A stretch of 64,000 nucleotides of DNA, taken from NCBI RefSeq assembly GCF_964213995.1, contig NC_135808.1:21762001-21826000 (forward strand), written 5' to 3'. A program made the translations under genes and the position numbers. The stretch is from Mustelus asterias (taxonomy: Eukaryota). The notes beneath the pieces were generated by a model, which saw only the letters and a list, made by a program, of their open reading frames with translations, did not search any database and was not told the DNA's origin. Positions 6,021-60,384 of the stretch are shown one piece after another; the stretch's first letter is position 1, and each line of letters begins with the position of its first letter.

Positions 6021-6067
6021 TCAGGAATGCGTGGAGGAGCTGGATGAAGAATCCCCACCGTCAGAAC
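6021..6067 (-). CDS. Copy A exon 7, cytoplasmic (SSDGGDSSSSSSTHS*)
   Basis: Acceptor at 6068-6069, Ser-rich tail, TGA. Homolog at 38427-38473. Confidence 0.85.
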
Positions 6068-9000
6068 CTGTTGAAGGAAGGAGAGGCATTAAAAAAATGT
6101 TCATTTCCACAGAGACAGAGATTGTGGATGTGATAAAGAGAGAACGAGAGAGACAAAGAGAGACACAGAGACACAGAGAAAGAAAGAGGTTCTCACACAC
6201 ATACTGACAGTGACACATAGAAATACACTCACACACACACACACACACACGATGTTTGATGATCAGCTTACTCTTTGCAGGATTGTAGTCGCTCTTCCCT
6301 CTCCCTGTAAAACAAGGAATGTTCAGTGAGTGACGAGACTGAGAGAAAATCAGAGACAGAGGCTGGAACTCTCGCTCGCACTGAGCCCCGACAACACAAT
6401 TCTGAACCCTCACTCCCACCACAACCCGAGACCCTCACTCCCACCCTGACCCTGGACCCTCACTCCCACCCTGACCCTGGACCCTCACTCCCACCCTGAC
6501 CCTGGACCTTTACTCTGACCTGAGACCTCACAGATACCCTGAACTCCATCCACAATCTGAGACCCTTCCCACAATTCACAGACACTCCCCCTTTATCTTG
6601 AGCCCCTTATCCTCCCTATCCCAACTCTGAGGCTCTTCCACCCACTCTGTGCCCCCCCCCACACCAACCTGAGACCCACAGCCTGAGCCACCCCCACCCT
6701 GGAATTCTCTCCCACAATCCCTCCCCCAGTGAGGAGCTGCTCTTTTCCCTCCAATTCCTACCTTTCTTGTTGTAGATGACGACAGCCACAATGATGAGAG
6801 CGATGAGCACGAGGACCCCGACCACAATCCCGACAGTAACAGCAACCTGGGAGCGAGACTTTGGTTCTGTTAGAGAGAGAATCAGAGAGACTGAGTGAAT
6901 CAGGGAGAGGGAAAAGTGAGAATCAGAGAGAGAGAATCAGAGAAACTGAGTGAATCAGGGAGAGGGATAAGTGAGAATCAGAGAGAGAGAATGTGAGAGA
7001 GTGCGAGAGAATGAGAGAGAGAGAGAGTTAGCATCTAAGAGTGAGTGAGGGAGTGAATGACAGATAGAGAAAGTTCAAAGAGTGAGTATGAGAGAGTGAA
7101 TCAGAGAGAAAGAAAGAGAAATGAGAGAGTGAATCAGAGAGAGAGAGAATCAGGAAACACAGGATATATGACACAGAAACCGGCCATTTGGCCCATCCAG
7201 TTGATACTGGTGTTAATGTTCTACTTGAGCCCCCTCCCATCTTTTTTTCTCGTCTAATTCGACCATTTTAACTCTATTCCCTTCTCCCTCATTTGCTTGT
7301 CGATCCTCCCCTTAAACTACACTGTTCAGTTCAGCCACTCCCTGTGGCAGCGAGCTCCACATTCTCATCACTCTTTGGGTGAAGTTTCTCATGAATTCCC
7401 CATTGGGTTTCTTGTATTGATGGCCACCAGATCATAGATCATAGAAACCCTACAGTACAGAAAGAGGCCATTCGGCCCATCGAGTCTGCACCGACCACAA
7501 TTCCACCCAGGCCCTACCCCTATATCTCTACATATTTTACCCGCTAATCCCTCGAATCTACGCATCCCAGGACACTAAGGGGCAATTTTTTTTCTCGCAT
7601 GGCCAATCAACGTAACCCGCACATCTTTGGACTGTGGGAGGAAACCGGAGCCCCCGGAGGAAACCCACGCAGACACGAGGAGAATGTGCAAACTCCACAC
7701 AGACAGTGACCCAAGCCGGGAATCGAACCCAGGTCCCTGGAGCTGTGAAACAGCAGTGCTAACCACTGTGCTACAGATATGCTCTTCCCACAAGAGGAAC
7801 ACTCTCGATGTGTCCGCTCTACAAAAAAGCTTTCATAATTTTAAAGTCCTCGATTAGATCAACCCTCAGCCTTCTGTTTTCCTGAGAGCAGAGACCCAGC
7901 CGGTCAATCCTTTCCTGAGATGTCCACCCACTCATTTCTGGAATCATCTCTGTAAATCTTCTCTATGAACAAAGTGGAAAAACATTTTCCACTTTCTGAA
8001 ACCCTGAAACACCCTTTCCTCACACTCTCTGCTTTCTGTCCCAAAGTCAGTGAGTGATCCATTCTGTCACTCATCCCCTAACTCCACATGCTTTCACCTT
8101 GTCAATCAGTCCATCACGAACACCCTTTTCTATTACATTTGAAAAATTATATGATATTATATCTATTACATTACCATTGTCTATTCCCTCTGTTCCATCC
8201 TTAAAGAATCCACTAAGTGGAGTAAAACAAGATTTTCCATTTCAAAATCCATGCTGAATATTCATTGTTATAGTATTTGATTCTAGATTTTCAGGAATTA
8301 TCTCCAATAGAAGGAATTCCATTATTTTTCTGAATATTGATCTTAATCTGACTGACATAAACTTCCAGGATGCACTGGGTCCTGTCCTACTTAATATTTG
8401 ATATATTATTGTCACATGTATTGGTACACAGTGAAAAGCATTGTTTCTTGGATACACCAGGCTCTCTCCATCCTCTGATATTCCACGGTGCCCTACCTCC
8501 TGTAATATCCCAGGATACACCAGGCCCTGTTAGACTGTAATATCCCAGGATACACAAACACCATTCATACTTTAACATCCCAGGATACTCTGGGCTCTGT
8601 CATACTGTAATCCCAGGATACACTGCTACCCGTGCGACAATAATATCCCAAAATGCACTGGGTCTTGTCGTACAATAATATCCCTGGACACACTGGGCTC
8701 TGTCATACTCTGATATCCCAAGTAAATCAGGCCCTTGTGCACAGTAACATCCGAGGATACACTTGGCCTTGTCCCTACTGTAATATTCCAGGATACACTG
8801 GGCCCTGACCAACTAAAGGATCTCATGATACACAGCGCCCTGTCCCACTGTAATATCCAAAACCGCAATGGGTCCTGTACTCCCAGTTATTTCCCAGGAT
8901 GCACCGGGCCCGGTCATGCTGTGATATCCCAAGGTACACTGGGCCTTATCCGTCCTGTAATATCCCATAAGACACTGGATCCTGTTGCACTGTAATACAC

Positions 9001-11463
9001 CAGGATACAGTGGGGGATGTTCCATATCAAATCCATGGACACACAATTATTTCCCACCAATGGTGGTGCCAAGATATATAACACATTGAAGGTTAATATT
9101 TATTTTCCTCTCTCTGTATCCTGGGCCTCAGGCTGTCCTGGGCTGACAGCTCAGCACTGACCCTCACTCCTGTGATCCTGGTCTGAGGCTGGGTCCTCTC
9201 TAACAGTGAGAAACAGTCTTACCGTAAATCACCACCAGCGTCTCCTTCATCCCGCTGTGTTCCACCCGACAGGAATACTCGGCCTGGTCCTCCGGATTAA
9301 ACTCTACCCATTTCCGGATCTGGTAGGTGCTGTCGTGATTGGGTAAGATCCCACTGGACAGAGTCTCATCAATCACCACTCCGTCTCTCCACAGATTCAC
9401 CTCGATGGCCTGAGGGTAAAACCCGGTGACGACACAGGACAGCCGGTTAGAATCACCCAGACTGGTAAAGGACACGACGGGGGCAACTGAGAGAGAAAGA
9501 AAGAGGAGTCAGTCCAGGAACCTTGAGATAGAGAGTCCCGGCATCACCCCCTTCACCGACTCTCACTCCCCCCTCACTCACTGACTCTCACTCCCCCCTC
9601 ACTCACCGACACTCACTCCCCCCTCACTCACCAACTCTCACTCCCCCCTCACTCACCGACTCTCACTCCCCCCTCACTCACCGACTCTCACTCCCCCCTC
9701 ACTCACCGACTCTCAATTCTCTCTGTCCATACTCCAGGTATTTTCTCAGCCACTCGATACACTCCACCTCCAGGTAATGTTTCCATCGCTGAATGATGAC
9801 AGTGTCCCTGTCCCAACTGTTTTTGATGGTCTCCCCCCATGTGACCGACGTCACCCACACCATGTGCTCCTTGTCGAAGCTGAGAAAATCATGTCCATCC
9901 CATCCCCTCTGGTTGAATCCACTCGTGGTCCCATCATCCCTCAGGTCACAGCCAGTCATCAGCTGGTAGACATGGATCCCTGTGGATCAGAAACACAAAC
10001 AGCCAATCAGACACAGTCCCAATGGGCGATCCCACCTGCACAGCCAATCAGAGGCCGCCTCCCTGGAAACAATCCCTCCACACATTCACAGCCAATCACA
10101 TTTCCTGTCACATCTCCAATCGCAGCCAATCAGCCTCTGGCTCTCGGTTCCGGATCCACTCTGGGTTTCTCCTCATTCCCACCTGGATCCCCGGGTGCTG
10201 GGAGAGTGAGCACTCACCTACTGTCTGGTTGGTGCGGGACATGAGCAGTGGAATATCAGCTTTAAAATGCATCTCCTGCTCCTCTGTGAGGATCTTCTTC
10301 CGCTCCCAGGCTGCCGGACCCTCGCTCTCCACCATCCACTGCTCCCGGGGGATCAGCTCCCTCCGATCGCTGTCGTACAAAACAAACTGGACACCGTCCA
10401 CATAACCGACAGCCACAAACTCCGGGAAATCCGGGGTCGAAGTCATTCCCGTGAAGAAATACCGGAGAGAGTGAGAGCCTGAAATAGAGAGAGAGAGAAT
10501 TCAGGATAGACACCCTAAAAACACCAACACACACACACACACACACACAGAGATCAGGGCATGAACCCCAAAACACTGATTCCAAACCGAGAGCAAGACC
10601 TCCACCCAGCCTGGCATTGCCCCTCTCACACCCCATCACTCACTGACCCAGGGTTAATGCCCCAGTACCCAGCCTGGCATTGCCCCTCTCACACCCCATC
10701 ACTCACTGACCCAGGGTTAATGCCCCAGTACCCAGCCTGGCATTGCCCCTCTCACACCCCATCACTCACTGACCCAGGGTTAATGGCCCAGTACCCAGCC
10801 TGGCATTGCCCCTCTCACACCCCATCACTCACTGACCCAGGGTTAATGCCCCAGTACCCAGCCTGGCATTGCCCCTCTCACACCCCATCACTCACTGACC
10901 CAGGGTTAATGCCCCAGTACCCAGCCTGGCATTGCCCCTCTCACACCCCATCACTCACTGACCCAGGGTTAATGCCCCAGTACCCAGCCTGGCATTGCCC
11001 CTCTCACACCCCATCACTCACTGACCCAGGGTTAATGCCCCAGTACCCAGCCTGGCATTGCCCCTCTCACACCCCATCACTCACTGACCCAGGGTTAATG
11101 CCCCAGTACCCAGCCTGGCATTGCCCCTCTCACACCCCATCACTCACTGACCCAGGGTTAATGCCCCAGTACCCAGCCTGGCATTGCCCCTCTCACACCC
11201 CATCACTCACTGACCCAGGGTTAATGCCCCAGTACCCAGCCTGGCATTGCCCCTCTCACACCCCATCACTCACTGACCCAGGGTTAATGCCCCAGTACCC
11301 AGCCTGGCATTGCCCCTCTCACACCCCATCACTCACTGACCCAGGGTTAATGCCCCAGTACCCAGCCTGGCATTGCCCCTCTCACACCCCATCACTCACC
11401 TGCCGACACCTCTCCACACAGAAGGATCAGCTCTATCAGTCCAATTATTGCTGCTTTCCTCAT
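6021..11463 (-). CDS. MHC class I heavy chain, copy A (UAA-lineage-like, probably non-classical), 7 exons, 348 aa, intact
   Basis: Exons on the minus strand: 11400-11463, 10218-10478, 9707-9979, 9223-9486, 6762-6866, 6272-6304, 6021-6067. All introns are GT-AG and phase 1; the total is 1047 nt with no internal stop. Class I hallmarks: [11 protein letters not shown] glycosylation site, alpha2 and alpha3 Cys pairs, TM and Ser-rich tail. Confidence 0.93.
6272..6304 (-). CDS. Copy A exon 6, cytoplasmic (GRGKSDYNPAK)
   Basis: 33-nt exon with the conserved class I cytoplasmic Tyr. Homologs at 38199-38231 and 60265-60297. Confidence 0.85.
6762..6866 (-). CDS. Copy A exon 5, connecting peptide and transmembrane segment
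   Basis: EPKSRSQVAVTVGIVVGVLVLIALIIVAVVIYNKK; 105 nt; AG/GT flanks. Confidence 0.92.
7431..7774 (-). mobile_element. tRNA-derived SINE (shark HE1/V-SINE-like)
   Basis: Box A/B-like head (tggttagcactgctg...gggttcgattcc), central 'gtgtggagtttgcacattctcc' core and CR1-like 3' tail. Confidence 0.85.
8365..9010. repeat. Degenerate ~35-bp repeat (cccaggatacactgggccctgt...gtaatat) in intron 4
   Basis: Recurrent caggatacactggg motif. Paralogous tracts at ~26500-26630, ~35120-35830 and ~53490-53600. Confidence 0.8.
9223..9486 (-). CDS. Copy A exon 4, alpha3 (C1-set Ig) domain
   Basis: LSCVVTGFYPQAIEVNLW...PNHDSTYQ...YSCRVEHSG; 264 nt. Confidence 0.95.
9553..9716 (-). repeat. 25-bp minisatellite spanning the exon 3 donor of copy A (~6 units)
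   Basis: Unit gtgagagtcggtgagtgagggggga on the gene strand. Confidence 0.9.
9707..9979 (-). CDS. Copy A exon 3, alpha2 domain
   Basis: GIHVYQLMTGCDL...WDGHDFLSFD...YLEVECIEWLRKYLEYGQRELRV; 273 nt. Confidence 0.95.
10218..10478 (-). CDS. Copy A exon 2, alpha1 domain
   Basis: [38 protein letters not shown]...MSRTNQTV; 261 nt; canonical splice sites. Confidence 0.95.
10605..11399 (-). repeat. 63-bp minisatellite in intron 1 of copy A (~12.6 units)
   Basis: Near-perfect units starting exactly at the intron 1 GTGAGT donor. Confidence 0.97.
11400..11463 (-). CDS. Copy A exon 1, signal peptide MRKAAIIGLIELILLCGEVSA
   Basis: ATG at 11463, hydrophobic core, CAG|GTGAGT donor. Paralogous to 30810-30873. 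Confidence 0.9.
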
Positions 11464-11734: not shown

Positions 11735-12642
11735 AGTGGGAATTCTGTTCACAAACAGAACTTATAAAGACACAGACTCAATTTACATGAATAATGGTTG
11801 GAATGCGAATACTTACAACTAATCCAGTCTTTAAGAAACAAAACAATGGGAGTGGAGAGAGCATCAAGACAGGCTAAAAAGATGTGTATTGTCTCCAGAC
11901 AAGACAGCCAGTGAAACTCTGCAGGTCCACGCAACTGTGGGAGTTACAAATAGTGTGACATAAACCCAATATCCCGGTTGAGGCCGTCCGCGTGTGTGCG
12001 GAACTTGGCTATCAGTTTCTGCTCAGCGACTCTGCGCTGTCGTGTGTCGCGAAGGCCGCCTTGGAGAACGCTTACCCGAATATCAGAGGCCAAATGCCCG
12101 TGACCGCTGAAGTGCTCCCCAACAGGAAGAGAACAGTCTTGCCTGGTGATTGTCGAGCGGTGTTCATTCATCCGTTGTCGCAGCGTCTGCATAGTTTCCC
12201 CAATGTACCATGCCTCGGGACATCCTTTCTTGCAGCGTAACAGGTAGACAACGTTGGCCGAGTTGCAAGAGTATGTACCGTGTACCTGGTGGATGGTGTT
12301 CTCACGTGAGATGATGGCATCTGTGTCGATGATCCGGCACGTCTTGCAGAGGTTGCTGTGGCAGGGTTGTGTGGTGTCTTGGTCACTGTTCTCCTGAAGG
12401 CTGGGTAGTTTGCTGCGGACAATGGTCTGTTTGAGGTTGTGCGGTTGTTTGAAGGCAAGAAGTGGGGGTGTGGGGATGGCCTTGGCGAGATTTTCGTCTT
12501 CATCAATGACATGTTGAAGGCTCCGGAGGAGATGCCGTAGCTTCTCCGCTCCGGGGAAGTACTGGACAACGAAGGGTACTCTGTCCACTGTGTCCCGTGT
12601 TTGTCTTCTGAGGAGGTCGGTGCGGTTTTTCGCTGTGCCACT

Positions 12643-12679
12643 CACCTGAAGAAGGGGCTTAGAGCCTCGAAAGCTTGTG
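12643..12679 (+). ncRNA. Minimal type I hammerhead ribozyme (inverted pLTR copy)
   Basis: cac ctgaaga a ggggc ttaga gcctc gaaa gct t gtg. Confidence 0.75.
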
Positions 12680-13392
12680 TGGCTTTTGCTACCAAATAAA
12701 CCTGTTGGACTTTAACCTGGTGTTGTTAAACCTCTTACTGTGTTTACCCCAGTCCAACGCCGGCATCTCCACATCAAGAATAGACACAAACAGGTTGAGA
12801 AACGGCCTCAACATGGGAATTGTCTAAATAGATAAATAGGGCTGGTGACATCATCAGTTGCCGGGTAGAATCAGCTGAAAGGAGTTTGATACAGTGACAG
12901 AGGGAAGGACATTCAGAACAGGAGCAGGTCTGATCTAACTATTCACTCACAGTCATAGAGATATACAGCACAGAAACAGGCCATTCGACCCAACTCGTAC
13001 ATGCCCACCAGGCTTTCTTTACTGAACCAGTCGCATTTGCCTGCATTTGGCCCATACTCCTCTAAACCTTTCACATCTATGTACCTGTCCAAATTGATTT
13101 TAAATGTTGTAATTGTACCCACGTTAGCCACCTCTTCTGGCCTCTCATGCCATATACACACCACCACCACCTGTGTGAAAACATTGCCCCTTTTAGTCCC
13201 TTTTTATACTTCTTCTCATCTTTAACCTATAGCCTTTAGTTTTAGACTCGTCTACCCTGGGGAAAAGACCTTGTCTCTTTACCTTATCTATGTTCCTCAT
13301 GATTTTATAAACCTCTATAAGGTCATCACATTCTCCTACGCTTCAGGGAAAGAAACCTTCTTCAACGTCCACTGCACCACAAATTTTGGTGC

Positions 13393-14108
13393 TGTTGTCG
13401 GTAAAAAAAACCTCTGACACTATTAGTGGATCAAAATGCAGGTTTATTTTCACAATTGTGGGAGAGGTCCAATTCCTAACATGGTCTCGGGCCTCTCCTC
13501 GAATATGAGTTAAGGGCAAACATTTATACATCCCGGTTCCCGCCCTTAATTACATTCCCCAATTCTCCAGGATGGCTGTCACTGTTCCTCATTCATTGTG
13601 GGATCCTTGCTGCATTGGCACTTTCTTCTGTTGTGTAGTTTGTTCAATCGTGGCAATCTCCAAGGCCGCGATTGTTTCTGTTCCATCCCTCTACGTTACG
13701 CACGGCCTTGAAGCAACATCACAAATTTTGCACAAACAGGTAATTAAAACACAACTAAAACACAACTATATCAGTTTAAAATAGTATAGATGCATAGCAT
13801 ATAATGAATGTATAAATCTTTTGTTATACAAAGACAGAAGGCATACATGTCAGCTTCACCGTATTAAACAAAAGTACATGAAAATGGAGACTGTTTCGCT
13901 TATAGGCTGCGTTAACCACATTCCTGAATACGATAGGCTGGAGACAATAGGGATAGCTGTTCCTCTTATCTGGTCTGGATGCACCAAAACAATCAATTCT
14001 AACAAAAACAATGAATTAGACAATACTTCTCACGAATCTCTTAAGTATTACAGAGGTGAGTCTCAATGCTGAAGTGTTCCAAGATTCATTAACCCATTCC
14101 CGTCTTCA
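13393..14108 (-). mobile_element. ERV 3' LTR
   Basis: PPT AAAAGGGGGAAAA (14109-14121) is followed by TG. On the minus strand there is TATAAAT at ~13522-13528 and AATAAA at 13443-13448, ending ...ACAACA. The left boundary is approximate. Confidence 0.7.
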
Positions 14109-15559
14109 TTTTCCCCCTTTTGGTCGGGTGCCAGGTCCAAACATGGCACCTATGACCAACTCAGAACCACATGTTATCGGCAAATGGGCCTCGCTCCTTC
14201 GTTGGGAGGTCTGCCCCTCCACCTGTACACTTGCGACCGTCATAATTCGCGCTGTTACTGTTTTGCAATAGGCGTTCAATAATGCCATACAAACACAGCA
14301 AGTAATTACAATTACAATTAATACAATCAATCCATGCATCAGGTATGAACCCCACGACCCAAACCATTGCCCCAGCCAGCCCAGGTGGTTATAATTGTGA
14401 TATTGGTTCCCGTTATCCTGTATTGTTTTTGCCACGTGTTTAATATGATCTGCCAAGCGAGTTATATTCTCCGAAGCATCGGGAATATACGTACAGCATT
14501 CAGAGCCAACTATGGCACATGTTCCTCCTTGGGAGGCTGGCATATAATCGAGTGCTAATCGGTTCTGTAACGCCACAGTCCGAATAGCTACGACCACTGC
14601 TGATATTTCAGAGACGGCTGTGCTCACCTCCTCGAACCCATTTTTAGCCTCATTTGCAATTTTCTCTTGGGTTGAGGCCATCCGTATAAGTTCCTGTGCT
14701 GCCTTTGCCATCCCAAAAAATGGGTAAGCTATCATGAAGAATCGTTCTGTCTCACTAATGGCTCGCTTAGCCCTAAGCAGGTGTATCTCGGGGTGGTCCC
14801 ATAAGTCAGTGTAATGGTGAACATAAGGCACCACATATGCCAAATAACATGATCCTGTCCAATTCCAGGGAAGCCACGGATAGGCATTGTTTCCACAGAC
14901 AAAATAGTTACCATTATATGCAGTCACCTCGCTTATATAAGCGGAGGAGAGGCTAACCGGGACGGTGGCTATGGGGCACTGGATTGTGATCTGTATCATG
15001 GCCTCAGTGTCATCCGTGATATCAACCTGCTGTATACAGTAGCTACGGCCAACAGGTATGGTTCCATTTCTTATCAGGCAGATAACTCCCCTTTGTTGAT
15101 TTTTCACAATGAAGTCAGGTGGGGAATCTGATCTGTCTTAGTTGGGTTGGTCATGTTTCTTAAAGGACGATAAAGTGCACCCTCCACCCCCTAGCCTTGA
15201 AACAACATCGCTGTTGCTGATACCCTGCATAGTGGTACCCGATGGGTTTTTAAATGTCAGTTTCCTTCCTGGGTTCCATTCTGATTTAAAACCCATTCAA
15301 TTACTTCTGGAGCTGATAAAGGGATAGGAAATAAGGGAATTCCTCCCTTTCCTCCATGCATGGGAATGTGTGAACAGACCCAGCACTTGCTCAGATTTGA
15401 TTGTGATGCATACAGATAAGACATATACACAAAGGTGTTCATACAATGGACAGAGTCATCGTGACAGAGATGATCATTGTGCTTCATTCCTAACTCCTCA
15501 TAATACAATTTATACTTTCCCGCTATGGCTAACAGGGCCAGGGTCGTGAGTATCAGCAT
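14106..15559 (-). pseudogene. env: Endogenous retrovirus env (gamma-type envelope), disrupted
   Basis: Signal peptide MLILTTLALLAIAG, CWVC (CxxC), furin site RAKR, immunosuppressive domain LQNRLALDY, CX6CC (CAIVGSECC) and TM helix. Stops and a frame change lie between 15257 and 15107. Confidence 0.9.
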
Positions 15560-15976
15560 GAAAAGAATCTTATCACTTACTAATATCCCGCGCGACCGTT
15601 ATACAACGGTCCAAAGGCTATAATCGCCCGCGTGCAACTTCCCGCGAAACCGTTCAGCTTGCTTGGAGGTCAGTTGTTGTTTGTTTATATCTGCAATTGG
15701 AGTGCGGTAAACCACTGTTAAGCTATTGCCTGTGTGTGTGTGTGTGTGTGTGTGACATGCCTGGGCATGCCCCTGCCGGCCCTGCCTGAGACTCCTCCCC
15801 CCCTGGTCCAGGTATAAAGGTGACTGCTCCCAACCCCCCTGCCTCAGTCTCTGGACTAGTTCATCAGCATGGGTGTGCTCCAAGTCTTTTGCTAATAAAA
15901 GCCTATTTGTTCTTGCATACAAACTAGTCTTTGCTTGATTGATGGCGCATCAATTTTATTCGCAAAATGTTTTGGG

Positions 15977-18900: not shown

Positions 18901-20198
18901 ATAAAATATTGAGATGGAGAATCGAGCTTTCCACCTACAATTACGACATCTTATACCGGCCCGGGAAGCTCAATGAGCCCCCAGACGCCCTGTCCCGGGG
19001 AATATGTGCCAGCGCACAAATAGACCAATTGCAGACTGTCCACAACGACCTCTGCCACCTGGGGATCACCAGGTTTTTTCACTTCATTAAAGCCCGTAAC
19101 CTGCCCTACTCCATTGAGGAAGTCAGGTCTATAACCAGACACTGCCAGGTCTGCGCAGAGTGCAAGCCGCACTTCTATCGGCCAGACAGAGCACACCTCA
19201 TAAAGGCCACCCTAAGCGTCGACTTCAAAGGCCCCCTCCCCTCTTCTGACCACAACATATACTTCCTCAACGTCATTGACGAATATTCACGTTTCCCCTT
19301 TGCTATTCCCTGCCCGGATATGACCTCGGCCACGGTCATCAGGGCCCTGCACAGCCTCTTCACCCTGTTCGGTTTCCCTAGCTATATCCATAGCGACCGG
19401 GGATCCTCCTTTATGAGTGATGAGCTGCGACAGTACCTGCTCTCCAAAGGCATAGCCTCGAGTAGGACCACCAGCTACAACCCCAGGGGAACGGACGGGT
19501 AGAGAGGGAGAACGCGACAATCTGGAAGGCCGTTTTACTAGCTCTGAGGTCTAAAGGTCTTCCAGTCATCCGCTGGCAAGAGGTCCTCCCTGATGCGCTA
19601 CACTCGATTAGATCACTCCTTTGCACAGCTACCAATGCTACCCCTCACGAAAGAATGTTTGTTTTCCCCAGGAAGTCCTCCTCTGGGACCTCACTACCGT
19701 CGTGGCTGATGTCCCCAAGCCCTGTCCTGCTCCGGAAGCACGTGAGAACCCATAAGTCGGACCCCCTGGTCGAAAGGGTCCAGCTCCTCCACGCCAACCC
19801 CCAATGTGGCGTACCCCGACGGGCGGGAGGAGACGGTCTCCATTCAAGACCTGGCACCCGCAGGTGCCCCAGGGACCACGACGACCCACAACCCCACACC
19901 CTCAACCCCCGTATACAGCACGCCTGAGCCCCAGGAGCCGCCACCACGCACCTGACAATCGGAAGGTGCCCCAGAGACCATGACGACCCACAACCCCAAA
20001 CGCCCAACCCCCGTATACAGCACGCCTGAGCCCCAGGAGCCACCACCACGCACCCGACAATCGGAAGGGACTACAAACGACTCGAGCGACTATGGCCTGG
20101 CGCCTGAACCAACACCGCGGCCACCGGAACCGACACCACAACTGACACTACGGCGGTCGCAGTGGCAGATCAAGCCCCCAGAGAGACTGAATTTGTAA
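15977..20198 (+). pseudogene. gag-pol polyprotein of the Gypsy element, interrupted
   Basis: ATG at 15977 (MEQILKP). The frame rejoins across the solo LTR (SPWRAQ|VGVVKTG). Frameshifts or stops near 18510, 18723 and 19495. Confidence 0.85.
17613..17897 (-). mobile_element. Solo LTR of a related Gypsy family inserted into pol
   Basis: Minus strand reads TGTGGTGAACC...AATAAAAGCC...GATGCGCATCA. 5-bp TSD ccaag at 17608-17612 and 17898-17902. Confidence 0.9.
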
Positions 20199-23314: not shown

Positions 23315-24799
23315 TAACTGATGTTAAATCCTGTGGGAGTGACACAGCTCAGTGACCAACTTCAGGGAAAACACTTGGGAATTCCGACTTCCTTAAGGAA
23401 ATTGAGCAGCTTAGCGGAGGCTGTCCAGGGTGAGATGTTTCCAGATGTCTCGACACCTCAACACCCACAATGTCTCCACCCTCAGACTGTACAGGAGCAG
23501 CCGTCTCCAGAAGGCCAGTCTCAAAGCTCAGTGTTGGATTGGATGAGCTGCTCTTTAGTGACGATACAGCGAGAGACAGACACTGAGCTCACATCCCACC
23601 CACCAGATTGTACAGCTAAATCCAGCAGGAATATCCCAGTTAGAAGGATCAACTCTGCATATTCTGAGCTCCTGCAACAGAATGCTGAACTCTTCACTCC
23701 CTCCACAATCTAAACCCCTCAACTCCAGCCCTGACCATAGACCTTCATTCCAGCCCTGACCACAGACTCTCACTCCAGCGCTGATCTGAGACCCTCACTC
23801 CCACCCTGACTCGAGACCCTCATTCATGCTCTGACTTGAGACCCTCACTCCCGCCCTGAACCGAAACCCTCATTCCCACACTGGGGTGAGACCCTCAGGT
23901 TGGAATTGTCCCGTCCCGCCTGCCATGGGAATTGTAGCGGGCAGGGGAGGACAATGCAAAGGTCTGTTGATCTTGGGTGGGATTTTACGGTCCTGGGGTG
24001 AGCCCGGCCAGAAACTCCCACGCTCAATCTCACTCCGAGGCGAGAGCCTCACTCTCACTCTGACGCAAGGCGCTCACACTGGCCCGAGACCCTCACTCCC
24101 ACTGGCCCGAGACCCTCACTCCCACTGGCCTGAGACCCTCACTCCTACTGGCCTGAGACCCTCACTCCCACTGGCCTGAGACCCTCACTCCCACTGGCCT
24201 GAGACCCTTACTCCCACTGGCCCGAGACCCTCACTCCCACTGGCCTGATACCCTCACTCCCACTGGCCTGAGACCCTCACTCCCACTGGCCTGATACCCT
24301 CACTCCCACTGGCCTGATACCCTCACTCCCACTGGCCTGAGACCCTCACTCCCACTGGCCTGAGACCCTCACTCCCACTGGCCTGGGACTCTCACTCCCA
24401 CTGGCCTGGGACCCTCACTCCCACTGGCCTGGGACCCTCACTCCCACATTGACCCAAAACCCTTACAGATATCCTGAACTCCTCATTCAATCTGAGACCC
24501 TTCCCACAATTCTGTGACACTCTCCCTTTATCATGAGCCCCTCACCCTCCCTATCCCAACCCTGCGACTCTCCCACCCACTCTGTGACCCCCACACCAAC
24601 CTGAGACCCACAGCCTGAGCCACCCCCACCCTGGAATACTCTCCCACAATCCCTCCCCCCAGTGAGGAGCTGCTCTTTTCCCTCCAATTCCTACCTTTCT
24701 TGTTGTCGATGACGACAGCCACAATGATGAGAGCGATGAGCACGAGGACCCCGACCACAATCCCGACAGTAACAGCAACCTGGGAGCGAGACTTTGGTT
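23315..24799 (-). pseudogene. MHC class I fragment, copy D: TM exon (24695-24799) plus post-stop region, lacking exons 1-4 and 6-7
   Basis: The TM exon matches copy A except Y->D (VIDNKK). 23315-23651 matches 5670-5990. Intron-4 homology extends to ~26630. Confidence 0.88.
24060..24450. repeat. 23-bp minisatellite in intron 5 (cccactggcctgagaccctcact)
   Basis: Tandem units. Related tracts at ~6410-6520 and ~59720-60160. Confidence 0.9.
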
Positions 24800-26631
24800 C
24801 TGTTAGAGAGAGAATCAGAGAGACTGAGTGAATCAGGGAGAGGGAGAGAATGTGAGAGGAAGAGAGAGAGAGAGAGAGAGAATGAGGGAGAGAGATGAGA
24901 GAGGGAGAGAACTTGAGAGAGGAGAGAATGTGAGAGACTGAGTGAATCAGAGAGAGGGATAAGTGTACATCAGAGGGAGACAGAGTGGGAGAGAATGGGA
25001 GACAGTGGGAGACAAAGGAAGAGAAGAGTGGAAGAGAATACGAGAGTGATGGAGAGAGAATGAATCAGAGAGAAAGAAAGAGAAAGAGTGAGAGAGCGAA
25101 TTAGAAAACACAGGATATACGACACAGAAAACAACCTTTCGGCCCATCCAGCTGATGCTGGTGTTAAAGTTCCACCTGAAGCTCTTCCCATCTTTCCACA
25201 TCTAATTCCACCATCTTAACTACCTATTCCCTTCTCCCTCATTTGCTTGTCTATCTTCCCCTTGAACTATACTGTTCAGTTCAGCCATTCCCTGTGGCAG
25301 CGAGCTCCACATTCTCATCACTCTTTGGGTGAAGAGGTTTCATGAATTCCCCATTGAGTTTCTTGATGAGTATCTTGTATTGATGACGTCTAGTTACGAT
25401 CTTCCCACCAGAGGAGACATTATCTCTGTATCCTGTCTATGAAAACCTTTCATAATTTTAAAGTCCTCGGTTAGATCAACCCTCAGCCTTCGGTTTTCCC
25501 GAAAGCAGCGACCCAGCCAGTCAATCTTTTCCTGAGATGTCCATCACTCATTTCTGGAATCATCTCTGTAAATCTTCTCGACACTCTCTCCCCTGACTCT
25601 ATATCCTTTGTATGAAATGGTGACTGGAACTGCACACAATCTCTAAATGTGGTCTAACCAATTTTGATAAAGGTTTAGCAATAACTTACAATTGTACAAA
25701 TTGTAATTACGAATGTACAATTCTATCGCTCGAGAAATGAAACCTGGTTTTCTGTTTGTTTTGTTTATAGCCTTGTCTAACCTGTTACTGATTGGTGTAT
25801 TTGTACACCCAGATCCCTTTGTTCCTCAATCCCATCCAGACTGACACCTTCCTCGTAATAAGTGACCTCCTTATCCATCCTTAACAGAAAACTACCTCAC
25901 GTTTATCTGTGCTGAACTCCAGACACCAATTATTTGCCCATTCTACAAGTTTATTAATGTCCTACTAATTACCTGCAGTTCTCCTCAATATCAAATAATT
26001 CCCCCAATTTGGTGCCATCTGCAAATTGAGAAATTGTGTTTTTGATTCCAATATCCAAATCATTGAGTGTAAGTTGTGAACAGCGATGATCCCAGCACTG
26101 ATCCTTGTGGGACACCATTTCCCACCTTCCGTCACTCTGAATAACTCCCTTTACTCACACTCTCTGCTTTCTGTCTCAAAGTCAGTGAGTGATCCATTCT
26201 GTCACTTATCCCTAACTCCACATTCTCTGACCTTATCCATTTGTCTATCACCAGTCACCTTATCGATTTCATTTGAAAAATCATATTAAATTACATCCGT
26301 TACACCACCATTGACTCCTCCCTCTGTTACGTGCTCAAAAAATTCACAAAGTGGAGTAAAATAAGATTTTCCATTTCAAAATCCATGCTGATGATTCATT
26401 GTTATATTATTTGATTTCCAGATTTTCATGAATTCTCTCCAATGGAAGGAGTTCCATTATTTTTCTGAAACTCTGATTTAATCTGACTGAACTAAACTTC
26501 CAGGATGCACTGGGCTTTGTTGTACTGTAATATCCCAGAATGCACTAGGCCCTGCTGTACTGTAATAGCCCAAGATACACTGGGCTTTATTGTACTCCAG
26601 GATGCACTGGGCCCCATTGTACTGTTATAAT

Positions 26632-30722: not shown

Positions 30723-30873
30723 TTGCAGTAAGTTACCGGAACAGGAACACCTTTTCCTGTAAATACAGGACACAGCTAACGGGCTGAGAACTCCAAATGT
30801 TTCCCCAACATGAGGGAAGCAGCAATGATTGGACTGATAGAGCTGGTCCTTCTGTGTGGAGAGGTGTCTGCAG

Positions 30874-32880: not shown

Positions 32881-35800
32881 ATGGGTTCGTACCCTGATGT
32901 ATCTCTCTGTGTGGGTGTTGATGGTTAGGGGTTCAAACCCTGATATCTGTGTGTCAGCGTTTTTAGGGTGCATATCCTGAATTTCTCTCCCTCTCTGTTT
33001 TTCAGGCTCTCACTCTCTGCGGTATTTCCTCTCGGGAATGACCCTGGTCCCCGGTTTCCCAGAGTTTATAGCTGTCGGTTATGTGGACGATGTCCAGTTT
33101 GTTGTGTACGACAGTGATCGGAGGAACTAATCCCCCGGGAGCAGTGGATGGTGGAGAGCGAGGGGCTTGAGTCCTGGGAGCGGAAGAAGATGCTTGTACA
33201 GGAGCAGGAACGGTATTCCAAAGCCGATATTCCGCTCTTCATGTCTCGGGCCAACCAGTCAGGAGGTGAGTGCTCACTCTCCCACAACTCTGGGATCAAG
33301 TTGGTCAATGTGGCTCCTCCCAGTGTAGTTGGCATTGATTGGCTGTGTGTGTGGTGCTCCCAAGTGACACTGTCTCTGATTGGTTGTTTGTGTTTCTGAT
33401 CCACAGGGATCCATGTCTACCAGACGATGACTGGCTGTGACCTGAGGGATGATGGGACCACGAGTGGATTCAACCAGTTTGGGTGGGACGGACAAGATTT
33501 TATCAGCTTTGACAAGGATCACATGGTGTGGGTGACCCCGATCACATGGGGAGAGATCATCAAAAACAATTTGGACAGGGACATAGCCAACAGCAAGGGA
33601 TGGAAAAGTTACCTAGAGGGAGAGTGTATCAAGTGGCTGAAGAAATATCTGGAGTATGGACAGAGAGAACTGAGAGTTGGTAAGTGAGAGGTGAGATGCC
33701 CGGGACTCTCTATCTCAAGGTTCCTGTACTGACTCCTCTTTCTTTCTCTCTCAGTTGCCCCCGTCGTGTCCTTTACCCGCCTGGGTGATTCTAACCAGCT
33801 GTCCTGTGCCGTCACCGGGTTTTACCCTCAAGCCATCGAGGTGAATCTGTGGAGAGACGGAGTGGTGATTGATGAGACTCTGTCCAGTGGGATCTTACCC
33901 AATCACGACAGCACCTACCAGATCCGGAAATGGGTAGAGTTTGATCCAGAGGACCAGGCCGAGTATTCCTGTCGGGTGGAACACAGCGGGATGAAGGAGA
34001 CACTGGTGGTGATTTACGGTAAGACTGTTTCTCACTGCTAGAGAGGACACAGCCTCAGGCCAGGATCACAAGAGGGAGGGTCAGTGCTGAGCCTGAGACC
34101 CAGGATACAGAGAATGGGAAATAAATATTAATCTTCAATACTTTATTTATCATGGGGCTACCTTTAGAGGACAGTAATTGTGTGTCCAGGGATTTAATGT
34201 GAAATGTGCCCCTATTATTTGGCTACTAATTCAAACTCTTTGCAAACATTTCAGTTTAGTCGGACAAAGGACAGAAGCCGAGTCTATTCCTCTTAATAAT
34301 CTATTTAACACTTTAAGTACCAAACTCAAACTTACAACAGTTGCAACATTTTAACTCTTTTTGTGGACATTAATTCTTTAACTGAACATTAATTCTAATT
34401 CCTTAACTGCAAACAGATATTCTAATCCTTTAACTGGAAATAGATATGACCTGGTTTAGAGCAAAATGTCTGTTCCCGATGTAGAACTGTCCTCAGCGTC
34501 TTTCTCTGAAGATGTTCTGCAGGGTACACTTCTTGCGATGGTTGATCTCTGGAGTTATTGCTGGAAACAAAGGGCTGACGTGTGCCTTTACCCCCAAAAC
34601 TGTTCTCACTTTCCAGAAAATTCTGTAACACCCAGCCAATGGTGTAACCGGGAACTGATCATGTTGCTCGACCAAGCCAATGAATTACTTGTAACCGATT
34701 CCACAATGCTCACTCAAGCCTGCATGCAGGACACATAGCTTATCCTCTGTCGGTGCCATCAGGTCTAACTCAAAGTAAACAACTTCCCATATTTGGTCAA
34801 CACAGGAAGCGGAACAAAGAAACCTACAGCACAGGAACAGGCCCTTCAACCCTCCAAGCCTGCACTGACCATGCTGCCCAACTTAACTAAAACCCCCTAC
34901 CCTTCTGGGGACCATATCCCTGTATTCACAAAGAACAGTGTCAGGTCACAGTTCACCGGGCAGACCACGTCAAGAACAGCTTTACGACCTGCATCTGTTT
35001 TTAAATATAAGTTGACCAAAAATCTCAGCATGCTTAACCCTCAGCCAGAATCCCACTTATCGCCATTATACTTGTTAAAATCATTATTGCAGTCATTCTT
35101 TATCTGTCTGCACCCCATTGTATCCTGGGATATTACAGGTGAAAGGGCACAGAGTATCCTGGGATATTACGGTGCAACAGATTCCAGTGTATCCCGGGAA
35201 ATTATAGTACGTCAGACTGCAGTGTATCCTGGGAAATTACATGAGGGGGTAGGGCCCAGATTATCCTGGGACATTACAGTGCAACAAAATCCAGTCGATC
35301 CTGGTGTATTACAGTGCGCCAGGATCCAGTGACTCGTGAGATATTTCAGGAGGGATGGGGCTTGGTGTATCCTGGAATATCACAGCATGACGGGGCCCAG
35401 TGCATCCTGGGAAATAACAGGAAGCACAGGAACCATTGTATCGATGGATATTACAGTAAGACAGGGCTGTGTATCATGAGCTATTATAGTTGGTCAGGGT
35501 GCAGTATATCTGGGATATTACAGCCTGACAGGACATGGAGTATCCTGGGATGTTACAGTATGACAGGATGCAGTGTATCCTGGGATATTACTGGATGACG
35601 GGACTCAATGTCTGTTGGAATTTTAGAGAAGGGACAGGGCCTGGTGTGCTTGGGATTTCAGAGGAGGGATAGGACCTGGTGTATTGGGATATTGCAGGAT
35701 GGCAGGGCCCAGTGTCTGCTGTGATATTACAACCTGAGAGGACCCAGTGTGCCCTGGGATGTTATATTAGGACAAGGCCCAGTGTATCCTGGGATATTAC

Positions 35801-37538: not shown

Positions 37539-38603
37539 ACTCTCACATTCTCTGCCTCTCTCATTCTCTTTCTCTCTCTCTCTCCCTCTGAATCTCTCTT
37601 TTCCCTCTCCCTGATTCACTCAGTCTCTCTGATTCTCTCTCTAACAGAACCAAAGTCTCGCTCCCAGGTTGCTGTTACTGTCAGGATTGTGGTCGGGGTC
37701 CTCGTGCTCATCGCTCTCATCATTGTGGCTGTCATCATCTACAACAAGAAAGGTAGGAATTGGAGGGAAAAGAGCAGCTTCTCACTGGGGGGAGGGATTG
37801 TGGGAGAGTATTCCAGGGTGGGGGTGGCTCAGGCTGTGGGTCTCAGGTTGGTGTGGGGGGGGTCACAGAGTGGGTGGAAGAGCCCCAGGGTTGGGACAGG
37901 GAGGATAAGGGGCTCAAGATAAAGAGGGAGTGTCTGAGAATTGTGGGAAGAGTCTCAGATTGGATGAGGAGCTCAGGGTATCAGTGAGGGGCTCAGGTCA
38001 GTGTGGGAGTGAGGGTCTCAGGTGAGGGTCTAATGTCAGAGAGAGGGTCACTGGTAAGGGCAAAGTGAGGGTCTTAGGTCGTGGTGGGAGTGAGGGTTCA
38101 GAATTGTGTTGTAGGGGCTCAGTGCGAGCGAGAGTTCCAGCCTCTGTCTCTGATTTTCTCTCAGTCTCGTCACTCACTGAACATTCCTTGTTTTACAGGG
38201 AGAGGGAAGAGTGACTACAATCCTACAAAGAGTAAGCTGATCATCAAACATCATCTGTATCTCTGTGTAATGTGTGAATCATTGTTCATTCTGTGTCAAA
38301 TACACTCAACCAAATGGTGTGTGTATGTATGTGTGTGTGTCTCTTTCTCTCTGTATCTATATCTTGTGCACAGTCTCTATCTCTCTGATAATGAACAGAT
38401 TTTAAAACCTCTTCTTCCTTTAACAGCTTCTGATGGTGGGGATTCCTCATCCAGCTCCTCAACGCGTTCCTGAGGTATGAACTGTGTTGATAAATATTGG
38501 GAGCTGATCCTTCTAACTGGGATATTCCCGCTGGATTTAGCTGTACAATCTGGTGGGTGGGATGTGAGCTCAGTGTCTGTCTCTCGCTGTATCGTCACGA
38601 AAG

Positions 38604-52635: not shown

Positions 52636-54129
52636 AGGGGGTGATGCCGGGACTCTCTATCTTGAGGTTCCTGTACTGACTCCTCTTTCTTTCTCTCTCA
52701 GTTGCCCCCGTCGTGTCCTTTACCCGTCTGGGTGATTCTAACCGGCTGTCCTGTGCCGTCACCGGGTTTTACCCTCAAGCCATCGAGGTGAATCTGTGGA
52801 GAGACGGAGTGGTGATTGATGAGACTCTGTCCACTGGGATTTTACCCAATCACGACAGCACCTACCAGATCCGGAAATGGGTAGAGTTTGATCCAGAGGA
52901 CCAGGCCGAGTATTCCTGTCGGGTGGAACACAGCGGGATGAAGGAGACACTGGTGGTGATTTACGGTAAGACTGTTTCTCACTGTTAGTGAGGCCCCAGC
53001 CTCAGGCCAGGATCACAGGAGGGAGGGTCAGTGCTGAGCTGTCAGCCGAGGATAGGGCTTTGAGGCCCAGTGATTAGCGCTGCTGCCTCACAGCACCTGG
53101 GATCCGCGTTCAATTCCAACCCTGGGCCGCTGTCTATGTGGAGTTTGCACATTCTCCCCGTGCCTGCATGGGTTTCCTCTCGGATCTCCGGTTCCTCTCG
53201 CAGTCCAAAGATGTGCAGGTTCGGTAGAGTGGCCATGCTAAATTGCCTGTTAGTGTCAGGGGGATTAGCAGGGTAAACACATGGGGTCACGTGGATAGAG
53301 CCTGGGTGGGATTGTTGTTGGTGCAGGCTCGATGGGCTGAATGGCATCTTTCTTTCTGTACTGAATGGATTCTATATATCTCTGATTCTATGACAGCCTG
53401 AGGCCCAGGATACAGAGCGAGGGAAAGATATATTAATCTTCAATACATTATATACCATGGTGCCACCATTCGGGGACAGGAATTGGGATTACTGGGATTT
53501 TACCGTGCCACAGGCCCTATTGTCTCCTGAGATATTATAGTATGAATGGGCCCAGTTTATCCTGGGATATTACAATATGGCAGGACCCAGTGAATCCTGT
53601 GTTACAGGCGGTGGGGGGTTGTCAGTATGAACTGCCCTGATTTCCCCCCTCACGACTCGTCCACTAACAGTCAGTTTTGTTTTAAATTCTGAGCTCTCTC
53701 TTTATAAATGGTGGCATCTTTTCCCCAACCCATAAATTTGGAGTGTTCCTATTCTCTGTGAATAACTTGCACAGTAAACCTGAGGTAAGATGAAAATACT
53801 CACATGAGAAAAGTTTCACAACATTGACCCCTCTGCACTCACACAGTGAACGGGGGATAAGGAGAAGGAAGAGGGTTCAGGGCCCGATCACAATAAAAAA
53901 AATGTGAGGGTTTTACATGTGTCCAGAATGAGCAGTCTAATGGAAGGTTTCTTTCAAGGGGAGGTTGATGGATTATAGGGTGGTCCACCTGCAGTGACTT
54001 TAACAAGGCCCAAGATGTGGACCTCTCAAAATATTCGCTCCCAAATTAAGCCAGTAATGGATTGTCCAATCAGGGAGCCCTGCATGTGTTCATAATGTGG
54101 AGTGTCAGCGTTACTCGCACTCTGGGTTT

Positions 54130-56693: not shown

Positions 56694-59600
56694 TAAATCT
56701 TTGTCAATAAGTGGGAATTGTATGCATCTGAACAGCATTCTATTTGAATCATTTTATTCAGTTTGTTAATGGTTTTGTTAACTTGTTCACTGTTAGTTAG
56801 ATAAATAAGTTGTTCCTTGTTGATTTTTGAGAGTGTCAGGCAGTTATTTTGATTTAACCAGTAAAAGTTGCTGAAGAGCAGATTGTACCACTTCACACTC
56901 ACTTTTACAGATTATGGCGAGGTGCTCCTCTTTGAGTGGTGAGGCCTTAGTTCTCAGAGGGGGATCAACCTCTGCTTCATAACAATAACCTATTTGGGAA
57001 ATTTAAACCCAATCTTGCCTCCATCCTGGCTCCATTACACCACCTACTAAAAAAAGATCAGCCTTGAGAGTCGTCTTCCAGTCAATCCTTGGCTTTCAAT
57101 AAACAAAAGCAACAACTTTCCTCTTTTAATATTCTGGCGCATTATGATCCCAGGAAAGAACTATCACTGACCTGCGACACATCCTTGTATGGCTTCATGA
57201 CGGCTTTTGCACATCAGTGGCCAAACAGAGTGGAATTGCTTATGCTCCCAGGACCTTGACTATTGCAAAAAAGCCCATGTCGAAAAAGAAGGGTTGGCGG
57301 TGATATTAGGAGTGAAAAGATTCCACCAGCGCCATTATGGGCAGAAATTTGTAAGTAAGACACAGACCACAAGCCACTCCTAGGACTGTTTAAAGAGGAC
57401 CAGGCAGTGTTGCCCATAACATCAGCCCGAATCCAGCAGTGGGCTTTATTACTGACCGCCTACAATTACCAGGAGGCCTTGAGCCGACTATCGTTAGCAG
57501 ATATCCGATCGGTGGTATCCCCAGTGGAAGAGTCTGTAATGACAATGATTTTTTTTGGAGACTCTCCCAGTGCAACTAAATAAGATTTGACCGTGGACTT
57601 AAAAAGGCCCAGTCCTTGCTAAATTTTAAAAATTCATTTGTGGGATATGGATGTTGCTGACTGGCCAGCATTTATTGCCCACCCCTAGTTGTCCTTGTCC
57701 GGAGGGCATTTGAGAGTCAACCACATTGCTGTGGATCTGAAGTGACAAGTAGGCCAGACCAGGTAAGGACGGCAGATTTTTTTTTCCCTAAAGAAGATTA
57801 GTGAACCCAGATGTTTTTTTTCTGACAATTGACAGTGATAGTGCCGGGGATTGTCAGAGGATACAACAGGATATAGATAGATTGGAGATTTGGGCACAAA
57901 AATGGGAGATGGAGTTTAATCTGGATTGATGCGAGGTGATGCATTTTGGAGGTTCAAATGTAGGTGTGAATTATACTGTAAATAGCAGAACTCTTAGGTA
58001 CATTAACATACAGAGGGATCTGGGTGTGCAGGTCCACAGTTACCTAAAAGTGGCAACACAAGTGGCCAAGGTGATTAAGAAATAATTTGGCATGCTTGCC
58101 TTTATCAGCTGGGGCATTGAGTCCAAGAGTTGGGAAATCATGTTGCAGCCATATAAAACCTTGATTAGGCCGTATTTGGAGTATTTTGTGCTGTTCTGGA
58201 CACCACCCTATCGGAAGGACGTAGAAGCTTTGGAGAGAGTGCAAGGAAGGTTCACCAGGAGTGACAGAAGGTGGGAAATGGTGTTCCGCAGTAATCAACG
58301 CTGGAATCACCGCTGTTCACACTTTACACTCACTTATTTTGACATTGGAATCGAAACACAATTTCTCAATTTGCTCAGGTCACCAAATTGGGACGAATTA
58401 TTCGATATGCAACAAAATAATAGAACATAAATAAATTTGTAGAATGGGCAAATAATTGGTGAATGGGGTTTAACACAGATAAACATGAGGTAGTTTTCTA
58501 TTGGGGGTGAATAGGGAGGTCTCTTATTACTTGGGAGGTGCCGGGCTGGATGGGGTTGAGGAACAAAGGGATTTCGGTTTACGTTAAACCAATCCGCAAT
58601 AGGTTAGGCAAGGCCATGAACAAAATAAATGGAAAATCAGTCTTTATTTCTCGAGGGATAGAATTGTAAAGCAAGGAAGTTATTGCTAAACCGTTATCAA
58701 ATCATGATGAGACCACATTTACAGACTGTGTGCAGTTCCAGTCACCATTTTACAGAAGGGTTTTTACTCACAGGAGAGGACATAGAGAAGATTTACAGAG
58801 ATGATTCAAGGAATGAGTGGGTGGACATCTCAGTGAAGGATTGACTGGCTGGGTCTCTGCTCTCAGGAAAACAGAAGGTTGACCTAATCGAGGATTTAAA
58901 ATTATGAAAGGTTTTTATGGACTGGAAACAGAAAGAATGTTTCCTCTTGTGGGAAGAATGTAACTCGGGGTCAGCAATACAAGATGGTCACCAAGAAACC
59001 TAATAGGGAATTCAAGAGAAACTTCTTTACTCAAAGAGTGATGTGAATGTGGAGCTCGCTGCCACAGGGAGTGGTTGAAGTGAACAGTATAGTTTAAGGG
59101 GAATGAATGAGAAGGAAATATGTAGTTAAGATGGTCAGTTTCGATGAGGGAAGATGGGAGGAGGATCAAATGGAGCATAAACACCAGCATCAACTAGATG
59201 GGCCAAATGGCCAGGTTCTGAGTCAGGTATTCTATGTTTTCTGATTGTCTCTCTCGCTCTCGAATTCACTCTCTCTCCATCATTCTCACGTTCTCTCTCC
59301 TCTTTTCCTCTCACATTCTCTCTCCCACTCTGATTCTCACTTTTCCCTCTCCCTGATTCACTCAGTCTCTCTGATTCTCTCTCTCTAACAGAACCAAAGT
59401 CTCGCTCCCAGGTTGCTGTTACTGTCGGGATTGTGGTCGGGGTCCTCGTGCTCATCGCTCTCATCATTGTGGCTGTCGTCATCTACAACAAGAAAGGTAG
59501 GAATTGGAGGGAAAAGAGCAGCTCCTCACTGGGGGGAGGGATTGTGGGAGAGTATTCCAGGGTGGGGGTGGCTCAGGCTCTGGGTCTCAGGTTGGTGTGG

Positions 59601-60384
59601 GGGTCACAGAGTGGGTGGGAGAGCCCAGGGTTGGGATAGGGAGGGTAAGGGGCTCAAGATAAAGGGGGAGTGTCTGTGAATTGTGGGAAGGGTCTCAGAT
59701 TGAATGACGAGTTCAGGGTATCAGTGAGGGTCCCGGGTCAGTGCGGGAGTGAGGGTCCAGGGTCAGTGCGAGAGTGAGGGTATTCGGTCAGTGCGGGAGT
59801 GAGGGTCCCGGGTCAGTGCGAGAGTGAGGGTCCCGGGTCAGTGCGAGAGTGAGGGTCCCGGGTCAGAAGGGGAGTGACGGTCCCGGGTCAGAGGGGCAGT
59901 AAGGGTCCCGGGTCAGAGGGGCAGTAAGGGTCCCGGGTCAGAGGGGGGAGTGAGCTTCCCAGGTCAGAGTGGGGAGTGAGGGTCCCGGATCCAGATGGGG
60001 GAGTGAGGGTCCTGGATCAGAGGGGGAGTGAGGGTCACGGGTCAGAGGGGGAGTGAGGGTCACGGGTCAGAGGGGCAGTGAGGAGGGTCCTGGGTCAGAG
60101 GGGGAGTGAGGGTCCCGGTTCACTGTGGGAGTGAGGGTCCCAGTCAGGGTGAGAGTGAGGATTTCAGAATTGTGTTGTAGGGGCTCAGTGCGAGCGAGAG
60201 TTCCAGCCTCTGTCTCTGATTTTCTCTCAGTCTCGTCACTCACTGAACATTCCATGTTTTACAGGGAGAGGGAAGAGTGACTACAATCCTACAAATAGTA
60301 AGCTGATCATCAAACATCATCTCTGCGTAACTGTGTGAATCACCATAAATTCTGTGTCAAATAGAGCATGTGTGTGTGTGTGTC

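Follow-up and report, generated by a model that had tools for sequence, protein, structure and literature searches.

An intact MHC class I gene of Mustelus asterias assigned to the non-classical UBA lineage within a large tandem array

The window analysed here, a 64,000-nucleotide stretch of Mustelus asterias DNA (G000:C8:21762001-21826000), carries on its minus strand an intact MHC class I gene, gene A. Judged by its sequence, this gene belongs to UBA, a named non-classical lineage common to sharks and rays, and it is one of at least 55 copies in a tandem array that extends from 21.62 to 24.75 Mb. Our overall reading, to which we assign a probability of roughly 0.85, is that gene A is an intact UBA gene of this array whose product is likely to be displayed at the cell surface with beta2-microglobulin and would hold its ligands without the classical N-terminal anchor. 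Since both the lineage and a class I-like annotation of the gene already exist, the finding as first stated is not new. Among the literature matches listed, there was no published account of this array, the main J Immunol papers lying outside the search, and the lysine at position 63 or the loss of tyrosine 59 may already have been described in Bartl 1997, Almeida 2020/2021 or Ohta 2002.

Structure and lineage of gene A

Gene A consists of seven AG/GT-bordered exons between positions 11463 and 6021 (table 1), which total 1047 nt, i.e. 348 amino acids plus the stop, and its product matches P0003 (Mustelus asterias; named class I histocompatibility antigen-like by NCBI) at 100% and equal length. 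The general features of MHC class I, an alpha1-alpha2 platform, an Ig C1 alpha3 domain and a transmembrane segment, are all present, and Pfam recognizes MHC_I (PF00129) and C1-set (PF07654). In the alignment, gene A also retains Q96, D119, G120 and D122, which we take to be contact positions for beta2-microglobulin; binding of beta2-microglobulin is predicted on this basis, and surface display of the product is likely.

Table 1. Exons of the UBA copies and intron minisatellites in the window (window positions; residues in HLA-A2 numbering).
Feature	Position	Strand	Remark
Gene A (UBA) leader exon, ATG at 11463	11400..11463	-	tblastn of P0003 100%; GT donor
Gene A alpha1 exon (Y7, A59, K63, R84, N86)	10218..10478	-	
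Gene A alpha2 exon (I143, S146, W147, Y159, W167, Y171)	9707..9979	-	matched without difference by a 173-nt piece of run X18
Gene A alpha3 (Ig C1) exon	9223..9486	-	
Gene A connecting peptide and transmembrane exon	6762..6866	-	
Gene A first cytoplasmic exon	6272..6304	-	
Gene A last coding exon with stop	6021..6067	-	
Copy B leader exon	30810..30873	+	
Copy B alpha1 exon, 260 nt	33006..33265	+	one-base deletion near 33122-33124
Copy B alpha2 exon (I143, N146, L147)	33407..33679	+	
Copy B alpha3 exon	33755..34018	+	
Copy B transmembrane and two cytoplasmic exons	37647..38470	+	approximate span
Copy C alpha3 exon	52701..52964	+	
Copy C transmembrane and first cytoplasmic exon	59391..60299	+	approximate span
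Orphan UBA transmembrane exon with flanks	24654..24815	-	remnant of a fourth copy
UBA intron minisatellites	10604-11399, 31029-31457, 9553-9715, 51769-52635		

Classical shark UAA shares with gene A the fold, the exon layout and Y7, R84, N86, W147, Y159, W167 and Y171, but has Y59, E, N or Q at 63, T143 and K146 where gene A has A59, K63, I143 and S146, and it adjoins PSMB8. Thus, from the full UAA anchor set (Y7, Y59, R84, T143, K146, W147, Y159, Y171), gene A is missing Y59, T143 and K146. Against nurse-shark UAA (6LUP), alpha1 aligns without a gap over 85 residues and alpha2 with one gap far N-terminal of position 143, and a predicted model of gene A, built from 95 aligned rows and with a mean pLDDT of 84.6, can be superposed on 6LUP with an rmsd of 1.6 Å over 267 columns. 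Because the alignments are nearly gap-free and the model superposes in this way, the residue numbering holds and the anchors stay missing, which rules out mis-numbering of the anchor positions. The residues that the first-pass annotation had called by eye for gene A and copy B are all as it stated, and structural alignment, which it had named as a possible refutation, does not restore Y59, T143 or K146 in gene A.

Transcript evidence comes from run X18, whose kind is not on record, which may belong to the assembly's own project and whose contigs carry no tissue labels. It covers exons, not intron, and by eye its loose ends run into neighbouring exons; joints are listed in no run, and splicing was read from these loose ends together with the exon-only cover. 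The alpha2 piece listed in table 1 is identical to gene A, and the loose ends are one or two letters off gene A and fit paralogues, so X18 documents spliced family transcripts plus an alpha2 of gene A type, but no complete transcript of gene A. Runs X19, X21 and X1 yielded short or more distant pieces only. Class Ib genes in general show low allelic polymorphism and are expressed in a restricted set of tissues; the genomic data considered here come from one assembly.

The homologue search returned O19479 and O19480, i.e. AAC60347.1 (nurse shark, P0048) and AAC60348.1 (horn shark), the former being labelled 'Gcirratum_UBA_AAC60347' in the query files supplied with a 2023 paper (PMC10751288). 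By domain, gene A is 66/64/78% identical to AAC60347 and 78/71/86% to AAC60348, and 60/63/58% identical to nurse-shark UAA and 43/63/59% to its own genome's UAA at 41.59 Mb. Like gene A, the UBA references have K63 and I143 and no Y59 (the horn-shark protein reads A59, K63, I143, N146), are multicopy and lie between complement C4-type and RXR genes. Gene A, AAC60347 and AAC60348 group together in a quick tree (SH-aLRT 99, a 58-row clade of 100 rows) and in careful trees of alpha1 and alpha2 (100/98, 43 rows) and of all three domains (100/99, 34 rows), and proteins of carpet, mackerel, cat, horn and saw sharks as well as of two rays fall into the same clade. The 100-row tree was built without the distant L062-L064, the stop-bearing alpha2-only L047 and L050, the frameshifted L021, L039 and L055 and rows lacking a domain; L017 is represented by the longer L061 throughout.

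The first-pass annotation had seen in these genes a UAA-like subfamily of local origin. UBA is described as derived from UAA in the part of a review bearing on shark class I (PMC12562908), so a UAA origin holds in the long run; moreover, the best PDB match of gene A is UAA and most array copies are recent duplicates. A recent subfamily budded from the genome's own UAA is nevertheless a reading to which we give almost no weight. When eight array copies are constrained to one clade with the genome's UAA-type genes and Triakis class I, the log-likelihood falls by 130.9 units (AU p 1.85e-11), which rejects membership of gene A in the UAA clade; horn, carpet, mackerel, cat and saw sharks as well as rays have orthologues, and the array sits where the parts of PMC10751288 consulted place UBA. 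UAA alleles or a recent UAA offshoot are ruled out by the same AU test together with the roughly 20 Mb that separate the array from PSMB8 and UAA. What survives of the earlier description is that the genes are non-classical and expanded, both of which are borne out, whereas the substitutions turn out to be lineage-wide, and the outcome it had named as speaking against itself, an already characterised locus, applies at the level of the lineage.

Other shark lineages fit less well. The same review, in the part cited, names two expanded class Ib families in sharks, UBA (citing Bartl 1997) and UEA (PMC12562908). UDA, UEA, UCA, UFA and UGA, for which a close sequence match and a place in the large Ib cluster beyond rxrb would be expected, do not fit gene A, in trees without a UEA reference. 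Distant class I exons with 30-38% identity to the alpha2 of gene A are found across RXR at 31.0-33.6 Mb, two of which by eye resemble the UDA and UGA queries of PMC10751288.

Genomic position and composition of the array

The array is flanked on one side by thioester-domain complement genes at 21.03 and 20.26 Mb (0.6 and 1.3 Mb away) and on the other by an RXR exon at 26.11 Mb (1.4 Mb away). The C4 and RXR-beta subtypes of these flanking genes are suggested by their position; one exon of the 21.03 Mb gene has C5 as its best PDB match, and another bears a thioester-like motif, presumably the complement thioester motif. PSMB8-type exons lie at 41.28 and 41.51 Mb, and the UAA-type class I gene adjoining them at 41.59 Mb keeps all anchors and groups with Triakis class I. 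UAA is characterized by a single gene beside PSMB8, PSMB9 and TAP; the class I gene beside PSMB8 is a different one, some 19.5-20 Mb from the array. The linkage to PSMB that the first-pass annotation had proposed to check is therefore not found, and the location agrees with the published one for UBA: according to the consulted parts of PMC10751288, UBA genes form a cluster of their own that has c4 and rxrb on its flanks and is separate from the Ia region, and in its white-shark table RXRB is followed by two MHC-Ib models and then by C4C and C4B, about 21 Mb from PSMB8.

Several further class I genes were seen along the chromosome. L059 at 27.97 Mb is a lone gene across RXR with Y59, Q63, S143, K146 and S167, whose alpha1 and alpha2 are sister to the UBA clade (97/92). 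The two PSMB8-type exons and the UAA-type gene form a region at 41.28-41.68 Mb, and three more Ia-like genes are located at 42.40, 43.41 and 35.07 Mb. L057 has E59 and W63, and L056 by eye resembles the UAA-2 query of PMC10751288.

Genome-wide, 80 alpha2 matches were obtained, 57 of which, corresponding to 55 exons (two of them split), fall between 21.62 and 24.75 Mb. With 97 candidates scored, this count of 55 alpha2 exons over 3.1 Mb is a floor, compared with the two (white shark) or three (catshark, sawfish) MHC-Ib gene models beside C4 in the tables consulted (PMC10751288), one of which spans 257 kb and may merge genes. It is the size of the array, not the anchor substitutions, that is local to this genome. 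Open alpha1 and alpha2 exons are present at 44 loci, which comprise 32 distinct nucleotide and 27 distinct protein types of alpha1 plus alpha2; at the other 11 of the 55 the fetched stretch holds no open pair. NCBI models P0001, P0002 and P0142 (411, 726 and 1069 aa) fuse neighbouring copies and are probably annotation joins, and at L031-L033 the fetched stretch contains no alpha3.

Blocks of the array are repeated about 0.41, 0.42 and 1.2 Mb apart, and some pairs are nearly identical (L005/L006, 100% over 3273 bases; L029/L030, 99.97%; L043/L044, 99.91%), so the exact copy number could be inflated. False duplication in the assembly as the source of the array's size seems improbable to us, since most block pairs differ by 0.5-3% and carry indels, and since the open copies fall into as many types as they do.

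Groove exons and alpha3 differ in how uniform they are among the copies. Mean nucleotide identity among copies is 83.6% for alpha1 and 81.8% for alpha2, but 97.1% for alpha3 (28 copies with alpha3), and in the 21 copies with all three exons dS is 0.34 for alpha1/alpha2 versus 0.04 for alpha3. L052 and L053 (23.75 and 24.43 Mb) carry a divergent UBA groove type (F59, K63, T143, W146; 57% identity to gene A). Their groove groups with the carpet sharks Hemiscyllium and Stegostoma (100/99), whereas their alpha3 falls with the alpha3 of all 12 array copies sampled (96/87, a bootstrap that is not fully settled), and this difference in grouping points to alpha3 having been homogenised or exchanged under old groove types. 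Such an array could have grown by unequal crossing-over and segmental duplication, while gene conversion or exon exchange would hold alpha3 uniform; because of this combination, its variety would come from paralogues rather than alleles. Change is concentrated at what we take to be the groove positions of HLA-A2, where pooled pairwise dN/dS is 1.21, as against 0.36 in the rest of alpha1/alpha2. Positive selection on the groove as a proven result was nevertheless dropped, because the 95% interval of groove dN-dS (-0.07 to 0.20, from pairwise comparisons that are not independent) includes neutrality. With no significant excess of dN over dS, relaxed constraint fits too.

Groove residues and candidate ligands

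Among the 44 open array copies, K63 and W167 are invariant and Y59 is never found; Y171 occurs in 38, I143 in 34 and T143 in 10, W147 in 17, and K or R is found at position 146 in 23. UBA-clade proteins of other species show the same picture (K63 28/32, Y59 0/32, I143 25/32, T143 2/32, K or R at 146 19/32), while UAA/Ia-like proteins have Y59 in 29/32, T143 in 31/32, K146 in 30/32 and K63 in only 1/32. From these counts, the A-pocket change is a fixed, old mark of the lineage, whereas the F pocket varies by paralogue. The lysine that the first-pass annotation had placed at the A pocket is thereby confirmed across the array. Its opened F pocket is not, since K or R at 146 is common, gene A keeps R84 and W147, and T143I adds bulk. 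E63 as the classical state holds insofar as K63 is unusual, but position 63 does vary, with E in 15, N in 7 and Q in 4 of the 32 UAA/Ia-like proteins (26 in all). D, E or Q at 63 takes part with Y7 and Y59 in the water network at P1, according to the portion of a review that deals with it (PMC8236899).

P0071 from Heptranchias combines K63 with intact Y59, T143, K146 and W147; it is sister to UBA in the alpha1 plus alpha2 tree (95/92) and placed elsewhere in the three-domain tree. This one sequence hints that K63 may have preceded the loss of Y59.

What would such a groove bind? The UBA ligands are most likely peptides or modified ligands that lack a classical N-terminal anchor. We tentatively suggest, as an idea somewhat short of even odds, that K63, adjoining the space left by Y59, would place a positive charge at the usual site of the peptide amino group and thus occupy or repel it. 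A free N-terminus would in that case be excluded from the A pocket, which would accept ligands that are shortened, overhanging, N-blocked or acidic, and the F pocket and floor of each paralogue would set its own ligand preference. In the non-classical molecules human HLA-F and mouse H2-M3, too, the A pocket is altered such that a free N-terminus is not anchored as usual; their substitutions differ from those of UBA and their origin is unrelated, so this is an analogy only. MR1 likewise has the class I fold and is among the top structural matches, at 38% identity, without being an orthologue. It uses a groove lysine on the sheet floor, at the strand position that we take to be equivalent to HLA position 45; an MR1-like floor lysine is ruled out at this scored position, which is I in 30 of the 32 array types.

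Two other readings have to be weighed against this. UBA may bind ordinary short peptides anchored at both ends, with K63 pointing outward, the remaining tyrosines holding the N-terminus and the array providing extra presenters of low polymorphism. We consider this possible but rather unlikely. It draws on the retention in gene A of Y7, Y159, W167, Y171, R84 and W147, which might be enough for near-classical peptide binding, on the near-constancy of W167 and Y171 across the open copies, and on the peptide-binding shark UAA being the closest fold. Against it stand the complete absence of Y59 from array and other-species UBA proteins alike, the scarcity of T143 in both, the role of Y7, Y59 and E63 in the P1 water network (as given in the cited part of PMC8236899) and the distance of about 20 Mb from PSMB8. 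Alternatively, the groove may not serve antigen at all, UBA molecules being recognized by NK-type or innate T-cell receptors as stress or self ligands, with diversity due to drift or to receptor or pathogen-decoy pressure on the helices. A groove dN/dS not significantly above 1, the loss of several anchors in many copies (I7, L84 and L159 in 6/44) and the 11 loci lacking an open alpha1 and alpha2 pair in the fetched stretch would fit, but K63 and W167, which face the groove by classical numbering, are invariant, and variation sits at groove positions while the other codons are under purifying selection. We regard this reading as unlikely.

Ligands held without the classical N-terminal anchor thus continue to be our preferred reading, and the atypical ligands that had been proposed for this groove are plausible. 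A more far-reaching version, to which we give little weight, is that K63 would supply an amine of the molecule's own, to fill the A pocket or to hold an acidic or carbonyl-bearing ligand, an ancient shark-and-ray way of presenting modified peptides or metabolites, with some 27 grooves mounted on one interchangeable alpha3, including a carpet-shark-type groove re-fitted with the local alpha3. If K63 does define a new ligand class, UBA would join the few class I systems for non-peptide or modified-peptide ligands, and this in the oldest jawed vertebrates. The idea is made testable by the fixation of K63 in the lineage, by the presence of about 27 grooves in a single genome and by the uncoupling of old grooves from a homogenised alpha3.

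Other copies and elements in the window

Besides gene A, the window contains copy B, a 5'-truncated copy C and an orphan transmembrane exon. Copy B (L021; groove exons at 33.0-33.7 kb, whole copy at 30.8-38.5 kb, plus strand) has Y7, S59, K63, R84, N86, I143, N146, L147, Y159, W167 and Y171. Its alpha1 lacks one base relative to a sister locus that is 99.4% identical, which in the assembly shifts the reading frame ahead of position 59 and may reflect either a pseudogene or an assembly error; the residues reported earlier for copy B are correct, but this frameshift was absent from the earlier description. For copy C, no leader, alpha1 or alpha2 was found within the 64-kb window. At 51143-52964, a GIY-YIG-type element directly adjoins the alpha2-alpha3 intron's 25-bp repeat, and this junction suggests that the three exons were deleted from copy C. 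A similar GIY-YIG-type element lies upstream of the gene A leader, at 11944-12711.

The introns of UBA have minisatellites of their own (table 1), with a 63-bp unit after the leader and a 25-bp unit between alpha2 and alpha3. Their copy numbers differ strongly among UBA copies, and they are possible sites of unequal exchange. Upstream of gene A, there is also an open frame of the retroviral envelope family (14106-15137, minus strand; Pfam TLV_coat, E 4.9e-18), and at 15899-19502 (plus strand) the remains of an LTR retroelement are present, with three open frames for protease, reverse transcriptase, RNase H and integrase. Both ends of the window are occupied by long tandem arrays, at 1-2589 (33-bp unit, 78 copies) and at 60388-63998 (22-24-bp unit, about 158 copies).
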